Assembly: GCA_945860575.1 (NCBI GenBank)
Contig: CAMAQQ010000001.1
Coordinates: 1-27,806, forward strand
Reading direction: 5' to 3'
From: Ferrithrix thermotolerans DSM 19514
GTDB lineage: Bacteria > Actinomycetota > Acidimicrobiia > Acidimicrobiales > Ilumatobacteraceae
Length of the DNA stretch: 27,806 nt
Shown: positions 13,514-23,733 of the stretch, one piece after another
How the letters are laid out: the number at the start of each line of letters is the position of its first letter
Position numbering within the stretch: the first letter of the stretch is position 1
Position numbers and translations under genes: made by a program
The notes under the pieces: model-generated
The model's input: only the letters and a program-made list of their open reading frames with translations
Database searches by the model: none
Told to the model about the DNA's origin: nothing

Positions 13514-14098
13514 TCAACGTTTTCCGAGGATCACTGGAGTGATTGAGCCAGCAGGGATTTCTTGAATATGAACTTGGGCTCCGGCACCAGTTGATGCGCG
13601 ACGCTTCATGATCTCACCGTCTTCAATTAACTGATGCAAAGTTTCAATCGCATGAATCAAAGTTTCAGGAGTAGGTGGGCAACCCGGTGCATAGACATCA
13701 ACAGGTACTATCTGGTCGACACCCTGGACGATTGCATAGTTGTTGAACATTCCACCACTGCTGGCACAAACGCCCATTGAGATAACCCACTTGGGTTCCA
13801 TCATTTGGTCGTACACCTGTCGCAAGACTGGCGCCATCTTTTGACTGACGCGTCCAGCGACGATCATGATGTCTGCTTGACGCGGTGACGCCCGAAATAC
13901 TTCCATTCCGAAACGTGCCAAGTCATAGTGAGCGGTGCCTGACGCCATCATCTCAATTGCGCAACATGCCAAGCCGAAAGTTGCAGCCCAACTCGAGCGC
14001 GAGCGAGACCACTTAACGAGATCTTCTACACGGCCAGTGAGAAAATTATGTTCGAGACCACCTAGACCGTCGTCTAATACATCGCGAACTGTTCCCAT
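13514..14098 (-). CDS. nuoB: NADH-quinone oxidoreductase subunit B
   Basis: 194 aa, [40 protein letters not shown]. Confidence 0.97.
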
Positions 14099-14574
14099 TA
14101 GGACGAAACTTTTTCGGTTTGACGGCCGTCAAGGCCAACACGACGAATGGTTGTCGCTGTCGTACGCGATGCCGAGAAAATATCATCATCAATCGTCAGC
14201 AGTTGACGCGGCTTAGTTATCGGACCCCAATCAAGTGCGCCACGAGCGACAACATAAACGAATGCCACAAAAAACACCGCGCTAAACGCGACGAACTCCC
14301 AGAAACCATAAGTGCCAAGTTCAGCGCTGGCGACTGCGAAAGGATACGCAAAGATAATTTCAATATCAAACATGATGAACAACATCGCCACCACAAAGAA
14401 ACTCACCGGAAATCGTTCTGGTGCTTCTCGACTTGGAACGATTCCGCATTCGTATGGCGCTTCTTTGGCAGAGTTGGGTCGCCGTGGTGCCAATAATTTT
14501 GACGCGACTAAAGATCCTGCGCCAAATAAAATTGCGAGAATTGTCAGTACGACGATTGGAAGATACTGACCCAC
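14098..14574 (-). CDS. nuoA: NADH-quinone oxidoreductase subunit A
   Basis: 158 aa, [26 protein letters not shown] followed by a roughly 40-aa tail. Confidence 0.96.
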
Positions 14575-14577
14575 GTT

Positions 14578-15390
14578 TTATGCCTTTGCGGGCGACTGCT
14601 CGTTAAGATTCTGTCGCAAAGTCAAATCTCTTTGATGCAAGATACGACAGAGCAACAAGAAAATAATTGATGAGCCAATCGTTATAAAAATTGCAGGTTG
14701 GCGCTTGCTACCCAGATCCCGAATCATGTGAACATATCGGCGCGGTTGCGTTTCGTCAACTACTGGCTTAGCCGGCGCACGACCAGGCTCGGTGCGCTGG
14801 GGCAGAACTGGTGCTACTTCAACAAGCGCAAAATGAGGCTTATGAAAGAACGCGACAAAATCGAGCGACTCGTTTATTTTTGGCCAACGCTCTCCGCCCT
14901 TGTTATAGACAGCGAGTGAAATATATTCTCCCGCTTGGAGTTCTTCGGCTTCGCGCTGAATGATGTCATCAGAAGCAGCCACCGCTTGGCCACGACCGGT
15001 GTCAGACTCTGCCAGTAGCAACCAACCTTCAAGCTGAAGTGCTTTTGAAACCTCGGCTGAATCACTTTGCGCTGACCCGGTCAAAGTTAATGAGGACTCC
15101 AAAATTTCCGCGCCCTGCAATTGTGACGGCTCGCGCACGATCGTCACGGGTTCGGCGGGTTGCCATGTTGGTTCTCGACCTTTCAGACCAATGCCGTATG
15201 TCCACCAAATCGCTCCCATTGTCGCCATCCAGCCGAATAGTCCAGCGAGCACAATCAAAAAACCCAAGCGCGCACCCAAGTTGGTGCCGACTACTAAATA
15301 AGTGCCACCAATAAGAACACCGACAGCGATCGCGACGATAACAATGCCGCGTAATTCTGGCTCCCAGTTAATTGCAAGTAGTGACAACAT
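14578..15390 (-). CDS. Hypothetical membrane protein (two N-terminal TM, soluble domain, one C-terminal TM)
   Basis: 270-aa ORF with a 0-nt gap to the cytochrome c stop and 3 nt to nuoA. No family motif recognised. Confidence 0.88.
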   Translation of the reverse strand: MLSLLAINWEPELRGIVIVAIAVGVLIGGTYLVVGTNLGARLGFLIVLAGLFGWMATMGAIWWTYGIGLKGREPTWQPAEPVTIVREPSQLQGAEILESSLTLTGSAQSDSAEVSKALQLEGWLLLAESDTGRGQAVAASDDIIQREAEELQAGEYISLAVYNKGGERWPKINESLDFVAFFHKPHFALVEVAPVLPQRTEPGRAPAKPVVDETQPRRYVHMIRDLGSKRQPAIFITIGSSIIFLLLCRILHQRDLTLRQNLNEQSPAKA

Positions 15391-16431
15391 TTACAAACCT
15401 CTTACATAATCAATAACAGCAGCAATTTGCTCGTCGGTGAGCATTAACCCGAATGCAGGCATTCGACCTGAACCTTGACCTTGTTGCCCATATCTTTTGC
15501 CAAGTTCACTACCACCCTTGATGAACGCAATCATCTCGTCGCGTTGTGGAAACTGGCGAACGGCCGAACCGCCCGTGAGGTTTGGGCCAAGTGCTCCGCC
15601 GCCGGTGATTTGTGGTTCGCCATACGACCAACCCTTTGTATGGCAACGGGCGCACGAAAAGTTTCCGCTACCTAGATCTAAATTAAACAATGCCTCGCCA
15701 ATGGTGGCATAAGTTTTTGCTTTAACCAATCGCTCTGCTTCGGCTTGAATCTCTTGTTGTTTCTCTTCTGGCAGTTTTCCATTTTCGTCGCGCGGAATCT
15801 GAATACTCTTGACATAATCAAGAACGGTTTGAATCTGCTGCTCGTTCAAAGGCCCACCACCAACGAGGCCCCATGCAGACATCGGCGAGAACGGCCGACC
15901 ATAATTCAAAATAAATCGAAATTCTTCTTCGCTGTATCGATAATAAACCGTGTTTATCGCTGGTGCTTTCCAGTTGACTTGCTTGACCTCACCTGTATTC
16001 GGATCAGTGAGTGCATACGCCGCGACACCGCCACCACCCTTCATCCCCCCGTGGCATCCTGCGCAGTTATAACCACCATCTGAAGTAGTTGCGAATAAAC
16101 CGCTACCCCATTCTTCGAACTGGTGTTGAAATTCTTTTTCAGCACCGACCATTCGACCAGGCTCGAGAATCCAATAAAGAGGCAAAGCGATCGTGACTAT
16201 TGCAAGAAAGGCCAGTCCAATCAATTGGGTGCGCTCAATCTTTTCGCCCTCAAGACGTTCGTCGTCGTAATACGGTTTACGGTTCGCCGCAAGTTTTATT
16301 TCCGAACCAACTTCGCGTTTCGCCGAACGAATATTCGACAAACCATAGACAATCCAACCGAGTACAGATACGAGAAGAATTACCCAGGCGATCGTTGTTG
16401 TTGTGTCGGCGAGAACAACTGCGGCATTCAT
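15391..16431 (-). CDS. Membrane-anchored diheme cytochrome c of a Rieske/cytochrome b complex
   Basis: CAGCH (16051-16065) and CARCH (15640-15654), candidate distal Met in PMSAW and RMPAF, two N-terminal hydrophobic helices. Confidence 0.9.
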   Translation of the reverse strand: MNAAVVLADTTTTIAWVILLVSVLGWIVYGLSNIRSAKREVGSEIKLAANRKPYYDDERLEGEKIERTQLIGLAFLAIVTIALPLYWILEPGRMVGAEKEFQHQFEEWGSGLFATTSDGGYNCAGCHGGMKGGGGVAAYALTDPNTGEVKQVNWKAPAINTVYYRYSEEEFRFILNYGRPFSPMSAWGLVGGGPLNEQQIQTVLDYVKSIQIPRDENGKLPEEKQQEIQAEAERLVKAKTYATIGEALFNLDLGSGNFSCARCHTKGWSYGEPQITGGGALGPNLTGGSAVRQFPQRDEMIAFIKGGSELGKRYGQQGQGSGRMPAFGLMLTDEQIAAVIDYVRGL

Positions 16432-17280
16432 TTAGTGACTTCCCTCTGCGCCAACGCAGTTTGGTCCTTCGGCTTCTTGGCCCGTTGTGTTAGTTCCGAT
16501 TGGCGGACCACCAAAAACTGCACCGGTGTCAATAATCACCATCCCATTATTTACTGAAACTCCGAAACGATCCATTCCCCGTGGGGCGGGGCCACCTTTT
16601 TTCTCTCCCACACGGTTGTATTGCGAACCATGACACGGGCACTCGAACCACTGCGAAGTTTTGCATTCTGGGACTCGACAACCAAGATGCGGACACTTTT
16701 GATACAACGCGACGACGCCAGCATTCATTCCTGAAAAAACTGCACCCTGGCCTCCGTACGAGACTTCTGCTTTCGAAATCGCTTCCTTTGGATATTCAGT
16801 TATCCAAGAGCGCGCTTCGGGCAAATACAAAAAACCATCGGCAGCACGAATCTGGGCAACTACGTCTTCAATCTTGCCCGCGTTGATTTTCGACCCGAAG
16901 CCGCCTTCGGCACCTTTCCATAAAAATGCAATCAGAGCGGCCGCGAAACCGCCGAGGCTGGCACTCATCAGGGTTACTGTGGCGCGATTTAGAAATGCAC
17001 GCCGCGTTTCACCAAGTGCTTCAGCATCTGGTGCAACCCATGTTTCAATTGCGGGTGGTGGCATGACGGCTAGTGCATTGCGGCTTGCAACACCTTGATG
17101 CTCGGCCTCACGCGAGGAGTTGCGCGCGACTTTTGCAGCATTTCGATCTCGCTTACGAGTCTCACGCGACAGTGATCCAACACCTTTAATATCAGAGCGG
17201 CGTGAGGCAGTAAGCACAACGCCAAGACCAAGCACGGCGAGCACGGCGATCGCAATTGTGATGATTGAAGTTGAGTTCAT
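16432..17280 (-). CDS. petC: Rieske [2Fe-2S] subunit (PetC/QcrA-like)
   Basis: CPHLGC (16678-16695), CPCHGSQY (16618-16641), twin-arginine motif TRRAFL (16990-17007), KGGPAPRGM. Confidence 0.93.
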   Translation of the reverse strand: MNSTSIITIAIAVLAVLGLGVVLTASRRSDIKGVGSLSRETRKRDRNAAKVARNSSREAEHQGVASRNALAVMPPPAIETWVAPDAEALGETRRAFLNRATVTLMSASLGGFAAALIAFLWKGAEGGFGSKINAGKIEDVVAQIRAADGFLYLPEARSWITEYPKEAISKAEVSYGGQGAVFSGMNAGVVALYQKCPHLGCRVPECKTSQWFECPCHGSQYNRVGEKKGGPAPRGMDRFGVSVNNGMVIIDTGAVFGGPPIGTNTTGQEAEGPNCVGAEGSH

Positions 17281-17296: not shown

Positions 17297-18034
17297 TCAC
17301 AATTCGAAGAAGATGCCTTCACGCCATGGGAAGACAAAGTTGAAACCAGGACCTCTAAAAAATGAACCAATAATTACAAGCACCGCCCAAAACATCAAAT
17401 GGACCGTCCACAAACTCGTCAAAAACTTTCGATCTTCGGGACGATTTGATTCATTGCGATCCAAATATGGCGCAAGCATCATTGCGATGATTCCCATTCC
17501 GGGAATTGTCACACCGGCAATCATCGGATGAAACATCGTCAACAGCTCTTGCAATCCAAGAAAGTACCAGGGTGCTTTTGATGGGTTCGGTGTTTGATTG
17601 AAGTTTGCCGCTTGCAACAACGGCGCGTTTACAAACCACGAAAACATAAATACAAATGCAGTACATGCGAGCGACGCAACAAACTCAACGCCCAACAAAT
17701 GTGGCCAAGTATGTACTTTGTCAACTGGAACCGCTTTAACATCTTGAATCGACCCTGATTTAACAACGGTCAGCAAACGCTGTGTATGTCCACCAGGTCC
17801 GGCTCCGTAAGGGATGCTTCCGTTTGTTGGCGCTCCCACGACAAGAGCACTGGGCTTTTCTGCCACAGCAACCGCACCACCTGCGGCTTTGCTTCGCTCA
17901 AGCAAATCAGCCGGAATTCGCGAACCTGCATCGCTACTCGCAGCAGTTGGTGCCGAAGCACCTGCTGCGTCAGCAGCAGCTTTTTCGCGCGCCTCTTGCG
18001 CCCGTTTAAGCAGATGTTCTGGAATGCCGGCCAT
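17297..18034 (-). CDS. petD: Cytochrome b C-terminal part / subunit IV-like protein (PetD-like)
   Basis: TWPHLL..ANFNQTPNPSKAPWYFLGLQELL aligns with the WP..ANP..TP..PEWY region of subunit IV; 3 TM; TGATG overlap with the cytochrome b gene. Confidence 0.87.
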   Translation of the reverse strand: MAGIPEHLLKRAQEAREKAAADAAGASAPTAASSDAGSRIPADLLERSKAAGGAVAVAEKPSALVVGAPTNGSIPYGAGPGGHTQRLLTVVKSGSIQDVKAVPVDKVHTWPHLLGVEFVASLACTAFVFMFSWFVNAPLLQAANFNQTPNPSKAPWYFLGLQELLTMFHPMIAGVTIPGMGIIAMMLAPYLDRNESNRPEDRKFLTSLWTVHLMFWAVLVIIGSFFRGPGFNFVFPWREGIFFEL

Positions 18035-18819
18035 CAGAGTGGTCCTGAGATTCCGCCGTCTTTACGCACGCGCCAGAAATGGATCGCGAGGAAGATGACA
18101 GTAACAAATGGGAAAAGTAAGACGTGCAACACATACCATCGCAGAAGAGTTTCTGGTCCGATCTCTACTCCGCCCAGCAAAACGAAACGAACTTGTGAAC
18201 CAATCACTGGCGAGTATCCCATCATGTTGGTACCCACCGCTACTGCCCATAGCGCAAGTTGATCCCATGGCAACAAGTATCCAGTGAACGAAAGCAGAAG
18301 AGTGAGTGTCAGCAATATTACGCCAATCACCCAGTTGAACTCACGAGGCGCTTTATACGCACCATGATAAAAAACACGAGCCATGTGTAAAAACACCGCC
18401 AACACCATCAAGTGCGCTCCCCATCGATGCATGTTTCTGACCATCAATCCAAACGTCACCGACGTGTGCAACGACTGAATGTCTTGCCAAGCATTGGCTG
18501 ATGTCGGACGATAGAAAAACATTAAGAAAATTCCGGTGATGGTAAGCAAGATGAATAAAAAGAAACTCAAGCCACCCAAGCACAGTGTGTAGCTGACTTT
18601 TACAGCGTGACGCTTTACTTTTACTGGATGCAAGTGATAGAGCACAGAGTTCATAACTACATACGAACGGTTTCTTGGTGAGTCTGAGTAACCCTTGCGG
18701 AATATCGATCCTGGTCGGAAGATTGAGTTCCACGCTTGGCTGCCCTGCAATGACTCATTTAATTTTGTTATGCGATCTTTGATCGTCAGACGAGATTTTT
18801 GTTCGAGCATTTGAACCAT
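18034..18819 (-). CDS. petB: Cytochrome b N-terminal part, cytochrome b6-like (PetB-like)
   Basis: TLCLGG, MHRWGAHLMVLAVFLHMARVF, GYLLPWDQLALWA, LHVLLFPFVTVIFLAIHF, and the C-terminus GISGPL found in cytochrome b6. Confidence 0.93.
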   Translation of the reverse strand: MVQMLEQKSRLTIKDRITKLNESLQGSQAWNSIFRPGSIFRKGYSDSPRNRSYVVMNSVLYHLHPVKVKRHAVKVSYTLCLGGLSFFLFILLTITGIFLMFFYRPTSANAWQDIQSLHTSVTFGLMVRNMHRWGAHLMVLAVFLHMARVFYHGAYKAPREFNWVIGVILLTLTLLLSFTGYLLPWDQLALWAVAVGTNMMGYSPVIGSQVRFVLLGGVEIGPETLLRWYVLHVLLFPFVTVIFLAIHFWRVRKDGGISGPL

Positions 18820-18837: not shown

Positions 18838-19251
18838 TTAAAATCGCATGCCATATGAATAGCCATGATTATTCGTTCGCATATGAGTTTCGCCAGTCGC
18901 TGGCGCAACGCCAACCTTGCCCAAGATAATTACTCCTGTTGGACATCGATCAACGCACAGCGCACAACGCGTGCAAACATCATCGTCAATAATAAACACA
19001 ACCTTGTCCGAAGGATCATCACCCGGCAACTCAGTGCCGTCAGCTTGTGTGATTGCTTCTGGCGAAACCATGAAGATGCACTTCCATGGGCAAATATCCA
19101 CGCATCCTTCGCACATAATGCACTCTGACTGATCAATATGTATGAATTGCTTTGGCTTGACTGCTTTGCTCAGGTATTCGGCATCAACCTCAACAAGTTG
19201 GTAGTCATCCGTATACGGCATCATCGGCGGGTTTGCGTCAGTTTTTGCCAT
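18838..19251 (-). CDS. 2x[4Fe-4S] dicluster ferredoxin-like protein
   Basis: CIMCEGCVDICP (19088-19122) and CTRCALCVDRCP (18940-18975); no TM or signal peptide evident. Confidence 0.92.
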   Translation of the reverse strand: MAKTDANPPMMPYTDDYQLVEVDAEYLSKAVKPKQFIHIDQSECIMCEGCVDICPWKCIFMVSPEAITQADGTELPGDDPSDKVVFIIDDDVCTRCALCVDRCPTGVIILGKVGVAPATGETHMRTNNHGYSYGMRF

Positions 19252-19254
19252 GGC

Positions 19255-19731
19255 TCAACTTCTCTTCACCAGTGGACGTCCGTAAGTTGAAGTTGCTACT
19301 TCTTTAGTAACTACTTCTCCACGCTTCTGCCACCACTTGAATAAATAAATCATCAGGCCGATGTAATAAACATGGATGACTACAACGATGATGTCGCGAA
19401 TTGCTTCGTAACTAATAACGATCGGAAAGCTTCCGCCAATCGTGTCTGACTTCAAAATATCAAATGGTCCGTAGACGAGTTTGTCTTTACGCCATCCAAG
19501 ATCTTTGTCGGCGTGGTCGATCCACTGGTGAGGCACAACACCAAACGCCAAAAACAAAACTGCAAAAACATAAGCGGCACCCAGCATCGCTTCGCCCCAA
19601 GTTGCTTTACGATCAAAACTTCGACGCTTGCCAATTGGAATTACAACAAGACTCATGAGTGTGGTCAGTACGAGCGAAAACAAGAATGCCTGATTCACTC
19701 CTGGCCACCTGAGAATGTCAATTGCGAGCAT
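19255..19731 (-). CDS. Hypothetical 3-TM membrane protein, first gene of the run
   Basis: 158 aa, ATG 19731, purine-rich GAGGAAAGG upstream, 3-nt gap to the ferredoxin. Confidence 0.87.
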   Translation of the reverse strand: MLAIDILRWPGVNQAFLFSLVLTTLMSLVVIPIGKRRSFDRKATWGEAMLGAAYVFAVLFLAFGVVPHQWIDHADKDLGWRKDKLVYGPFDILKSDTIGGSFPIVISYEAIRDIIVVVIHVYYIGLMIYLFKWWQKRGEVVTKEVATSTYGRPLVKRS

Positions 19732-20048: not shown

Positions 20049-20873
20049 GTGGCAGGAATACCCGAGCATCTACTTAAGCGTGCACAAGAAGCGCGTGACA
20101 AAGCAGCTGGTAAAGCACCCGCAGCAGATGCATCCGGCGACGCGACAAATCTTCCTGCAAAAACTTCTCAAGCCAAACCAACTCCGGCTCCACAAGTTGC
20201 AAGCGCTCCGCCACCGCCACCGCCAGATCCAAGTTATGTAGTTGCTGCAAAGACGCGAAAAAAAATTCCATTTTGGGCGATGGCTACTTTGAGTTTGTTG
20301 CCCCTTTGGGCGCTGCTGTATGTGCTCGCGATTCGCCCACAAGAAAGAACAGTCGAAGGACCACTTGCAGTGGGTGCTGGTGTCTACGGATCTTGTGCAG
20401 GTTGTCATGGAGCCAATGGCGCTGGTGGAGCCGGTCGAGTTTTATACCAAGGAGAAGTTCTGAAAACTTTTCCGAAAATCGAGGACATGCTTAATTTTGT
20501 CTACACAGGCTCGCAACAATATATTTCTGCGGGTCTAAAAATTTATGGCAACCCAGACCGTGAAGGTGGCGCACACGAATTGCTTTCATATAACGGCAAC
20601 CCAATGCCTCAGCAGGGCGAAAAATACAGCGGTGGTCTAACTGACGCGGAAATTCTTGGAGTCGTCTGCCATGAACGCTATGAATTGAGTGGCGCAGACT
20701 CTGAAAGCGAAACATGGAAAGCAGAATACGAACGCTGGTGTTCACCCGAATCAGAGATTTTTGCTGGTCTTGAAGCTGGCTCAGTTAACTTTGACAATCT
20801 TGCAGAGACTTACGCTTCAATGCCCGACGCCCCTGCACATGTCGGTACAGACCCTCGACCAACTGGCAAATAA
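20049..20873 (+). CDS. Membrane-anchored monoheme cytochrome c
   Basis: GTG start with TGAGGAG at 20038-20044, Ala/Pro-rich linker, one TM (IPFWAM..LYVLAI), CAGCH at 20394-20408, candidate Met in NPMPQQG. Confidence 0.9.
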   Translation: MAGIPEHLLKRAQEARDKAAGKAPAADASGDATNLPAKTSQAKPTPAPQVASAPPPPPPDPSYVVAAKTRKKIPFWAMATLSLLPLWALLYVLAIRPQERTVEGPLAVGAGVYGSCAGCHGANGAGGAGRVLYQGEVLKTFPKIEDMLNFVYTGSQQYISAGLKIYGNPDREGGAHELLSYNGNPMPQQGEKYSGGLTDAEILGVVCHERYELSGADSESETWKAEYERWCSPESEIFAGLEAGSVNFDNLAETYASMPDAPAHVGTDPRPTGK

Positions 20874-20964: not shown

Positions 20965-22260
20965 ATGCAAAATGAAACTGAACTAGCTCAAGACAATACT
21001 GGCGAAGTTCGAAAAGTGCTGCGCACAGAAGTGCTCGTAGTCGGCGGAGGACCCGCTGGTGCCGCCGCCGGATTTTGGCTGGCGCGGCTTGGTCACGACG
21101 TAGTTGTGATTGAACGCAAAAAATTTCCACGAGAAAAAACATGTGGCGATGGATTAACACCACGTGCAGTTAAAGAACTCGGCGACATGGGTCTTGGCGA
21201 TCAACTGTCGCAGTTTCATCGCTACGAAGGTCTTCGCGCAACAGCACATGGCAAAGCACTCGAATTGAAATGGCCGACTCATCCGATTTATCCGCAGTAT
21301 GGATACGTCGTGCGTCGGCGCGAACTTGACATGATGGTCGCACGAAACGCCCAAGATGCTGGAGCGAAACTTTTAGAAGAGCATGAAGCAATCGCACCAA
21401 TAATTGAAAGTGATTGTGTTCGTGGTGCAATGGTTACGAACAAAGTTGATGGGAGCACTATTGCAATTCATGCGCAATATGTGATTATCGCTGATGGTGC
21501 GAACTCGCGATTCGGTCGCGCAATCGGAACCTCACGTGAAAAATCATGGCCGTACGGTACGGCGATTCGTACTTATTGGAAGAGCCCGAGACACGACGAA
21601 CCGTGGATTGAATCTGCACTTGACGTAAAAGATCGCAATGGTAAGTCGATGCCCGGATACGGTTGGATATTTCCGGTCGGCGACGGCACCATAAATATCG
21701 GCGTCGGACTGTTATCAACTTTCAAAAACTTTAAAGATGTGAACACTTCTCATTTACTTGATTCGTATGCGTATATGGTTGCCGACCGCTGGGAGATCGA
21801 CCCAACTCAACCAGAGTGCAAGGCAACTAGTGGCAAGATTCCGATGGGTGGATCGGTCGGACCAAAAGTTGGCAACACACACATCGTTATCGGTGATGCG
21901 GCCGGCAGCGTCAATCCATTTAATGGCGAAGGAATCGACTACGCCTACGAGACTGCCCACATCGCTGCCGATGTTTTGCATGATGCGCTACTTGCCAATG
22001 ATTCGGAGATACTAAAGCGCTACGACCAAATAATTGAAGATGAATACGGACAATATTTCAAAGTTGCAAGATTATTTGCACGAATCATCGGTCGCCCAGT
22101 TTTGATGCGCGAACTATCTCGAGTTGGCATCAATAGTCGAACGCTCATGGAGTGGGTGCTACGGATCATGGCTAACTTATTGCGACCAGACGAACTTGGC
22201 CCAGCCGAGGCTGCCTATAAAGCCGCCGCGTTGATCGTGCGCACTATGCCCGATGCCTAG
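20965..22260 (+). CDS. menJ: Geranylgeranyl reductase family flavoprotein, menaquinone reductase MenJ-like
   Basis: VVGGGPAGAAA, REKTCGDGLTPRAV, IIADGANS, GYGWIFP, IGDAAGSVNPFNGEGIDYA. The family call is firm; MenJ substrate is inferred from context. Confidence 0.8.
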   Translation: MQNETELAQDNTGEVRKVLRTEVLVVGGGPAGAAAGFWLARLGHDVVVIERKKFPREKTCGDGLTPRAVKELGDMGLGDQLSQFHRYEGLRATAHGKALELKWPTHPIYPQYGYVVRRRELDMMVARNAQDAGAKLLEEHEAIAPIIESDCVRGAMVTNKVDGSTIAIHAQYVIIADGANSRFGRAIGTSREKSWPYGTAIRTYWKSPRHDEPWIESALDVKDRNGKSMPGYGWIFPVGDGTINIGVGLLSTFKNFKDVNTSHLLDSYAYMVADRWEIDPTQPECKATSGKIPMGGSVGPKVGNTHIVIGDAAGSVNPFNGEGIDYAYETAHIAADVLHDALLANDSEILKRYDQIIEDEYGQYFKVARLFARIIGRPVLMRELSRVGINSRTLMEWVLRIMANLLRPDELGPAEAAYKAAALIVRTMPDA

Positions 22261-23040: not shown

Positions 23041-23733
23041 TTAGCGAGCACCAGCGGTATTGAGTTGCGGTGCATTTTCGGATTTACCACCTGTTTCAAA
23101 TCTCATCTGCTCGAAGTAACTCAGGATCTGCAATTCAACCCCGAGATCTACATTGCGCACTGAAACACTGCTCGGCGTAGACAACACAACCGGAGCAAAG
23201 TTGAGAATAGAAGTGATGCCTGCGTCTAGAAGTGAGTCGGCTGCGGCCTGCGACGCGGCGGAAGAAGTCGTGATCACACCGATACTTATCTTCTCGTCTC
23301 TAACAATGTTTTTAAGATCGTTCACATCACCGACAGTCAGCGAACTTGTAGTTCGTCCAATTTTTTTTGGATCGTTGTCTACGATTGCAACTACCGGAAA
23401 GCCACGCGATAAAAAACCATCGAACTTCGCGAGTGCGCATCCCAAATTTCCGGCGCCGACAACCACTACATTCCATTCACGCATCAAACCAAGTTCTCGT
23501 TTAATTTGATGAGTCAGATATGTAACTTCGTATCCAACGCCTCGAGTGCCGTAACTTCCGAGGTACGAAAGATCTTTTCGCACCTTGGCTGCGTTGACTC
23601 CTGCGAGGGCGGCAAGTTCATCACTCGAAAATCGAAGAACATTTGTTGCCGCGAGGTTGTTAAGAATCTGCAAATAGATCGGCAAACGAGCAATTGCTGC
23701 GTCTGGGATTTTGCGTCGTTGAAGTTGCGTCAT
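23041..23733 (-). CDS. rex: Redox-sensing transcriptional repressor Rex
   Basis: IPDAAIARLPIYL, KVRKDLSYLGSYGTRGVGYEV, VVGAGNLG, ILNFAP. Confidence 0.97.
   Translation of the reverse strand: MTQLQRRKIPDAAIARLPIYLQILNNLAATNVLRFSSDELAALAGVNAAKVRKDLSYLGSYGTRGVGYEVTYLTHQIKRELGLMREWNVVVVGAGNLGCALAKFDGFLSRGFPVVAIVDNDPKKIGRTTSSLTVGDVNDLKNIVRDEKISIGVITTSSAASQAAADSLLDAGITSILNFAPVVLSTPSSVSVRNVDLGVELQILSYFEQMRFETGGKSENAPQLNTAGAR

Follow-up and report, generated by a model that had tools for sequence, protein, structure and literature searches.

Split cytochrome b genes in actinobacteria are already on record. Among 618 actinobacterial homologues, Kao & Hunte 2014 (PMC4122944) identified five pairs of split cytochrome b, which come from Rubrobacter, Patulibacter, Conexibacter and Ilumatobacter coccineum and were placed in the PEWY-cyt c or APWY clades; from its motif, we infer that the I. 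coccineum protein falls in the APWY clade. Baymann et al. 2012 reported the same set of traits from Geobacter, Kuenenia, planctomycetes and other organisms; their 'additional' groups A1/A2 overlap with the APWY clade, whose members include the Geobacter ExtO/ExtP/ExtQ and Kuenenia Rieske/cyt b complexes. A split b6-type cytochrome b in Ilumatobacter has been in print since 2014, and a literature search returned no paper on this enzyme in Acidimicrobiia itself. The window analysed here is a whole stretch of 27,806 nucleotides (contig CAMAQQ010000001.1) from a metagenome-assembled genome (MAG) of the Ilumatobacteraceae, class Acidimicrobiia, which comprises 1.33 Mb in 197 contigs and is estimated to be 74% complete. 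Its minus-strand gene at 18034..18819 almost certainly encodes a b6-type subunit of complex III. The reading favoured overall, held as probable rather than secure, is that the protein is the b6-type half of the sole Rieske/cytochrome b complex of its host, a menaquinol:cytochrome c oxidoreductase that would include haem ci.

The product of this gene is a cytochrome b6-like subunit of 261 amino acids (aa), with an N-terminal extension of ~45 aa, four transmembrane helices and four histidine haem ligands. It matched the Pfam family Cytochrome_B (E 7e-46). In a phmmer search against PDB chains the top five matches were all cytochrome b6 (160-170 bits, E 1e-45 to 8e-49), the best being 6rqf_I (170 bits, E 7.6e-49), with 1q90_B and 2zt9_A also matched; lower scores were obtained for proteobacterial bc1 cytochrome b (~115 bits) and for mycobacterial/corynebacterial QcrB (82-90 bits). 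Residues 75-261 aligned with b6 residues 30-215 in an ungapped phmmer alignment, in which H131, H145, H232 and H247 pair with the b6 haem ligands H86, H100, H187 and H202, R252 with R207, and Cys80 of the motif TLCLGG with Cys35 (FYCLGG). The match of this cysteine, a candidate site for the thioether link to haem ci, to b6 Cys35 had been proposed in an earlier sequence-only reading of the window and is borne out by the alignment, but its codon is at 18580..18582 on the minus strand and not at 18581-18583. The helix D histidines, His232 and His247 (H-VLLFPFVTVIFLAI-H, 18079..18126, minus strand), are separated by 14 residues. The C-terminus, read directly, is GISGPL followed by the stop (18037..18054, minus strand), as that reading had stated; cyanobacterial/plastid b6 and Bacilli QcrB end in the same six residues. 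The claim that all hallmarks of b6 are present holds for the cysteine, the histidines, the spacing and the end, but the cysteine is preceded by Leu instead of Tyr. Among NCBIfam models, the protein passed the cut-off of cytb_ExtP (303.9 bits, cut-off 290), which describes the Rieske/cytochrome b module of Geobacter ExtOPQ (PMC5877670), and scored below those of cytochrome b6 PRK03735 (210 bits, cut-off 325) and bc1_QcrB_actin, NF050120 (117 bits, cut-off 500). AlphaFold2 models of the protein and its subunit IV, built from shallow alignments of close relatives and used for helix counting only, contained four long helices in the former (mean pLDDT 61) and three in the latter (57).

The N- and C-terminal parts of cytochrome b are encoded by separate genes, as had been proposed: the two Pfam domains fall on two proteins with seven helices in all, and the stop codon TGA of the b6-like gene and the start codon ATG of the next gene share 1 nt (TGATG). 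The same two-gene layout was found in ~95 related loci from independent assemblies, including closed genomes. From the overlap of stop and start, the split is read as a designed, translationally coupled junction and not as a frameshift. The second gene (17297..18034, minus strand) encodes a subunit IV-like protein of 245 aa that matched Pfam Cytochrom_B_C, the C-terminal cytochrome b / PetD domain. A cytoplasmic N-terminal extension of ~95 aa with IPxHLLxR[SA] motifs is followed by three transmembrane helices, and the Qo-site motif is APWY (17564..17575, minus strand), with Pro in place of the Glu/Asp of PEWY/PDWY. Of 96 subunit IV orthologues, 93 carry APWY and 85 have the motif IPxxLLxR[SA] within their first 140 residues; in the model of subunit IV a helix sits on a disordered cytoplasmic tail.

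A quick IQ-TREE phylogeny of 97 rows was built from Acidimicrobiia sequences, 70 taxon-unnamed representatives of 50% clusters and named references, namely QcrB of Brevibacillus, Bacillus, Tsukamurella and Rhodococcus, Deinococcus, Haloferax NarC, Rhizobium and Aureibacter (from a plasmid collection). The tree was made without cyanobacterial b6 and without published reference sets, and the relation to b6 is read from the PDB bit scores alone. Canonical QcrB, including four sequences from Acidimicrobiia, formed one clade (support 98) that was joined to haloarchaeal NarC (support 100). The window protein fell within a clade of 84 rows (Shimodaira-Hasegawa-like approximate likelihood ratio test, SH-aLRT, 95), the fused members of which carry APWYF or close variants (AAWYF, ATWYF, APWFF), and the Acidimicrobiia proteins with the cysteine formed a subclade within it (support 99). 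Bacilli QcrB fell outside the 84-row clade. On sequence grounds, the b6-like protein is a member of the APWY clade of Kao & Hunte 2014. By BLAST it was 42-44% identical to Bacilli QcrB (over 186-187 residues; 171 bits) and 30-33% identical to canonical QcrB. Nesting inside canonical QcrB was the outcome that the sequence-only reading had named as contrary to it; tree and topology test both place the protein outside. In an approximately unbiased (AU) test, run on a subset of 35 rows after the tree had been seen, forcing the window subclade together with canonical QcrB cost 82 units of log-likelihood (p-AU 3e-89). Canonical actinobacterial QcrB is ruled out as the identity of the protein by this test, by the score of 117 bits against the cut-off of 500, by the length of 261 aa and by the split gene. 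The claim of a non-canonical, b6-type complex III in an actinobacterium is upheld by the alignment, the NCBIfam match and the tree.

Conservation was assessed in 101 aligned b6-like orthologues. The four histidines, R252 and the first Gly of CxGG were invariant; Cys80 was kept in 97 of the 101 and in all 97 members of its own subclade, and Leu79, directly before it, likewise in 97 of the 101. The spacing of the helix D histidines behaved differently from what the sequence-only reading had supposed. Its count of 14 residues was right, but the spacing is not specific to complexes with haem ci: the same number separates these histidines in the four canonical QcrB proteins of Acidimicrobiia (NF050120 >650 bits) and in 71 of 79 full-length 50%-cluster representatives, whatever the residue at the cysteine position. 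This spacing therefore separates the b6 type from proteobacterial/mitochondrial bc1 and not from the mycobacterial type. As to which hallmarks actually DISCRIMINATE, to judge from these alignments the cysteine is informative and the 14-residue spacing is not. Among the 79 representatives the position of the cysteine is occupied by Cys in 15, Gly in 40 and Arg in 10. None of the 15 Cys-bearing representatives is fused to subunit IV, as against 31 of the 64 without the cysteine. The other Cys-bearing representatives seldom end in GISGPL (1 of 8 in the tree set). With Gly or Arg at the ci position in most members of the wider clade, the b6 traits do not travel as one package.

The distribution of the two forms was surveyed in 151 Acidimicrobiia genomes, each at least 85% complete. 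Cytochrome b was found in 148, of which only 22 have a canonical QcrB that passed the model; the remainder have only the b6-like form of ~260 aa. Closed or 98-100% complete genomes of the host family (G008, G014, G066 and G094) gave a single match, which was b6-like, and the host genome itself contains one cytochrome b, together with a single haem-copper oxidase subunit I. Of 301 sampled genomes from the phylum, 177 gave a b6/ExtP-like match at E <= 1e-40 and 104 passed the ExtP cut-off. These phylum counts rest partly on ten unpublished genomes (G199, G393, G341, G227, G294, G183, G265, G318, G415 and G383), and the depositors' consent is needed before tallies that include them are published. 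The split b6-like form is the standard in the class Acidimicrobiia and common elsewhere in the phylum, so the idea that it is an oddity in an actinobacterial context falls away. The counts for class and family indicate that the b6-type enzyme replaces qcrCAB in this lineage, one of the two options that the sequence-only reading had named, and supplements it only in a minority. On the favoured reading the gene was inherited within Acidimicrobiia, with the b6-type form as the rule and mycobacterial-type QcrB as an occasional extra.

The b6-like gene belongs to a minus-strand run in the order 158-aa membrane protein, ferredoxin-like protein, b6-like protein, subunit IV, Rieske protein, dihaem cytochrome c, 270-aa membrane protein, nuoA and nuoB, with further nuo genes up to the window edge by the layout of open reading frames; the Pfam check of the nuo run covered nuoA, nuoB and the last reading frame (Proton_antipo_M) only. 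The Rieske iron-sulfur protein (16432..17280, minus strand, 282 aa) has an internal twin-arginine translocation (Tat) motif, RRAFL, and the boxes CPHLGC and CPCHGSQY, the latter with the Ser/Tyr high-potential signature; its nearest solved relatives are the Kuenenia Rieske proteins 9rk4/9rk3, followed by PetC. The adjacent gene (15391..16431, minus strand) encodes a membrane-anchored dihaem cytochrome c of 346 aa with the haem motifs CAGCH and CARCH, the presumed electron acceptor of the Rieske protein; a search for solved relatives of this cytochrome found none. Upstream of the b6-like gene, at a distance of 18 nt, lies the gene for a cytoplasmic 2x[4Fe-4S] ferredoxin-like protein of 137 aa (18838..19251, minus strand), which is kept across the class. 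MAGs labelled Ilumatobacteraceae, Acidimicrobiales or acIV are the source of the relatives with 82-99% identity to the b6-like protein, and the respiratory order of seven genes recurs in nearly all of the 80 close loci that were fetched and had long enough flanks. All 20 class-level loci, one of which ends at a contig edge just past the b6 gene, have their genes in the order ferredoxin, b6, subunit IV, Rieske, cytochrome c.

Set beside the described systems, the locus agrees with each in part. With the APWY clade it shares the APWY Qo motif, a split cytochrome b with CxGG (found in part of that clade), a Rieske protein of the high-potential type and the passed ExtP model. It differs in having LCLGG where WCMGG is typical, in the GISGPL end that so few of the Cys-bearing clade members carry, in a dihaem cytochrome c in place of multihaem partners, and in serving as the sole housekeeping complex III and not as one of several. 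With QcrABC of Bacillus and other Firmicutes (b6c) it has in common menaquinone, the split, the CxGG cysteine, the 14-residue helix D spacing, the GISGPL end and the failure of searches to find CCB genes; the Bacilli proteins differ in the motif YCFGG, the Qo motif PDWY, a subunit IV fused to a monohaem cytochrome c, an operon without a ferredoxin gene and a position outside the clade of the window protein. PetB of the b6f complex is the best solved match, with Cys35, the histidine ligands, Arg207 and the C-terminus all aligned. Unlike b6f, the locus has APWY and not PEWY, the 45-aa N-terminal extension and a subunit IV that is not detectably PetD-like, and there was no photosynthesis gene among the genes identified in the window. 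A search for cytochrome f in the 74%-complete host genome gave nothing above threshold. The b6f complex proper was rejected as an identity, there being no match above threshold to cytochrome f in this incomplete genome, no match to PetD, CCB1 or CCB2/4, a score below the cut-off of the NCBIfam b6 model, and a dihaem cytochrome c instead. Canonical QcrB of Mycobacterium and Corynebacterium resembles the window system in its phylum, in menaquinol oxidation, in a dihaem cytochrome c partner and in the helix D spacing, but is unsplit, ~450-550 aa long, carries SFMLGE instead of CxGG, and stands apart in identity and in its own clade with haloarchaeal NarC.

The host is an aerobic freshwater actinobacterium that has complex I and an aa3-type oxidase; the annotation of I. 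coccineum includes menaquinone biosynthesis. The gene structure, homology, conserved ligands, distribution and phylogenetic placement of the cytochrome are established by the observations above; the Q-cycle direction, redox partners and covalent haem are put forward on the strength of homology. The complex would consist of the b6-like protein, the three-helix APWY subunit IV, the Tat-exported Rieske protein and the membrane-anchored dihaem cytochrome c. Each of these four core subunits received Pfam and NCBIfam assignments. By homology, menaquinol would be oxidised at a Qo site formed together with subunit IV. One electron would pass from the Rieske protein to the cytochrome c and on to the aa3-type oxidase, and the other would travel via haem bL (H131/H232) and haem bH (H145/H247) to a Qi site on the cytoplasmic side. 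A third haem (ci/cn) is probably carried by Cys80 through a single thioether bond beside bH, as in b6f and Bacillus QcrB. In Bacillus QcrB the haem is covalent (Yu & Le Brun 1998, as cited in PMC4122944).

Covalent haem ci at Cys80 is judged moderately likely. This estimate takes account of a cysteine that is invariant in the subclade and part of a full CxGG, of the conservation of the Arg, of the strict pairing of the cysteine with the split form, and of the precedent set by Bacillus. The cysteine is always paired with the split form according to Baymann et al. 2012, and loss of haem cn has been argued to favour fusion (Dibrova et al. 2017, PMC5600118); the finding that Cys-bearing forms are never fused fits both. 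The trio of cysteine, GISGPL end and split gene is common to the b6-like protein and Bacilli QcrB. Several observations weigh against haem ci, or against the wider proposal that this is the sole b6-type complex of its host. The residue before Cys80 is Leu (VYCFGG in Bacilli, FYCLGG in b6), and Tyr at this place is invariant in experimentally confirmed haem-ci proteins according to Kao & Hunte 2014 (PMC4122944), who noted CxGG in the APWY clade and stated that haem ci there calls for experimental verification. The cysteine is a patchy, minority trait, found in 15 of the 79 representatives and requiring 6 changes for 8 Cys-bearing rows of the tree. Subunit IV gave no sequence match to PetD and is too divergent for one. 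The incompleteness of the host MAG leaves room for a second cytochrome b. The maturation factors CCB1 and CCB2/4, a search for which had been suggested in the sequence-only reading, were found neither in the host genome nor in 41 order-level genomes at least 95% complete; in the control, Synechococcus alone gave matches to these families and Bacillus subtilis, which does attach haem ci, gave none, and the negative is therefore weak and cannot decide the matter. The attachment system outside oxygenic phototrophs is unknown, according to Dibrova et al. 2017 (PMC5600118). Finally, Acidimicrobiia also contain a split cytochrome b without the cysteine (loci L091, L092, L095 and L105), which is 51-58% identical to the b6-like protein and has SW[YF]LGV in place of the cysteine motif, no GISGPL end and the APWY motif intact. 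These proteins form a clade of their own with Arg-type representatives, and the two types seem to coexist in some genomes of the class. The ferredoxin-like neighbour upstream of the Cys-less form is of a different type, with an extra CxxC.

The same complex might run the same Q cycle with two b haems only, Cys80 being a structural residue or a relic and menaquinone binding directly at Qi. This is considered a distinct but decidedly less probable alternative to haem ci at Cys80. It would suit the prevalence of Gly or Arg in the nearest representatives, which keep the same 14-residue spacing and APWY, the Cys-less sister form within Acidimicrobiia with the same operon neighbours, the Leu in place of a conserved Tyr, and the failure to find CCB-type genes in the genomes searched. 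Against it stand the invariance of the cysteine within a complete CxGG throughout its own subclade, the R252 (b6 R207) and GISGPL end shared by b6 and Bacilli QcrB, the strict absence of fusion in Cys-bearing forms, and the attachment of haem ci without CCB in Bacillus (control; PMC5600118). The remaining possibility that the split is an assembly or frameshift artefact, or that the gene is a diverged canonical QcrB, has next to no probability. The window does come from a fragmented MAG, but the same stop/start junction and two-gene layout recur in the ~95 independent assemblies, the first gene ends exactly as b6 does, and the ~95-aa extension of subunit IV lies between the two halves; the QcrB model score, the tree and the AU test reject identity with QcrB, and on these grounds both variants were ruled out.

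A further alternative departs from a plain Q cycle: the complex and the operon ferredoxin would link the low-potential chain (bL, bH, ci) to ferredoxin-level carriers. It is thought improbable, as are its two forms, a quinol-driven bifurcation such as has been proposed for anammox and a ferredoxin-to-quinone input as for cyclic flow through b6f. The idea draws on the ferredoxin gene 18 nt upstream. All 20 class-level loci retain this gene, with identities of 57-80% (48% in one) where the cytochrome is of the Cys type, and it is better conserved across the class than the Rieske protein or cytochrome c. A further ground is that an organism using menaquinone has a Rieske protein with the high-potential signature (CPCHGSQY), the nearest solved relatives of which, from Kuenenia, were measured at +303 and +335 mV. 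For the Kuenenia complexes, haem cN has been modelled as passing electrons into a cytoplasmic [4Fe-4S] chain, and APWY has been linked to reverse operation (PMC4122944). On the other side, the Cys-less loci also have an upstream ferredoxin-like gene (33-36% identity by tblastn, 25-31% by alignment), and the pairing is therefore independent of the ci cysteine. An aerobe with complex I, an aa3-type oxidase and only one complex III would need a normal forward role in any case, and the ferredoxin is a putative subunit at most. Predictions of the b6-like protein and subunit IV residues 95-245 with the ferredoxin partner gave ipSAE values of 0.13 and 0.05, below the mark of 0.32, and weigh neither way. 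Should the idea hold, which is a long shot, a haem ci linked to Cys80 might be the contact point for the 2x[4Fe-4S] protein of the operon in a minimal ferredoxin-coupled Rieske/cytochrome b complex, and such a complex, equally doubtful, would feed ferredoxin electrons to the quinone pool or bifurcate quinol electrons to ferredoxin-level potentials. If true, a ferredoxin contact would make this complex a non-photosynthetic and genetically tractable case in which to test what haem ci does, a matter of long debate.

The textbook account of actinobacterial respiration is built on the mycobacterial/corynebacterial QcrCAB-aa3 supercomplex. A large and environmentally abundant part of the phylum, including freshwater acIV, marine Acidimicrobiia and many deep-branching families, uses the b6-type enzyme, and assumptions derived from Mycobacterium on inhibitors, bioenergetics and annotation therefore do not transfer to these lineages. 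For specialists the point is not new; the value lies in the cultured Ilumatobacter strains, a non-photosynthetic, non-Firmicute system for simple biochemistry. Such strains could settle whether CxGG of the APWY clade binds haem ci, and in what way the haem would be attached without CCB proteins.

The first gene of the run (19255..19731, minus strand) encodes a protein of 158 aa with three transmembrane helices, and a membrane protein of 270 aa (14578..15390, minus strand) is encoded between the cytochrome c gene and nuoA; both are without a family match, and the synteny of both is kept. The ferredoxin-like protein has family-specific extensions, TDANPPMP at the N-terminus and HGYxYGxR[FL] at the C-terminus, which are missing from the ferredoxin beside the Cys-less cytochrome b. 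In the window, nuoA (14098-14577, minus strand) begins 3 nt past the gene for the 270-aa membrane protein, so that the complex III genes continue without a break into those of complex I on the minus strand. This junction is not universal, as nuoA/nuoB lie on the other side or not nearby in several class-level loci. In one related locus (L070) the cytochrome b query found a match and the other ten, proteins of the operon and its flanks, found none; a stray additional copy or a contig rearrangement may account for this.

The gene at 23041-23733 (minus strand), ~3.3 kb away from where the operon begins, encodes a redox-sensing repressor of the Rex type (Put_DNA-bind_N + CoA_binding). A search for a Rex operator upstream of the operon gave nothing convincing; the sole match in the window falls within the nuo genes and does not exceed chance expectation. 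A flavoprotein of the geranylgeranyl-reductase family (FAD_binding_3, GGR_cat; 20965-22260, plus strand) adjoins the respiratory run. A gene of this family lies beside the run in most related loci, and the conserved neighbourhood makes the flavoprotein a candidate menaquinone side-chain reductase. A gene divergent to the respiratory run encodes a monohaem cytochrome c, which begins (20049-20108, plus strand) with the same peptide, MAGIPEHLLKRAQEAR, as subunit IV (17975-18034, minus strand).

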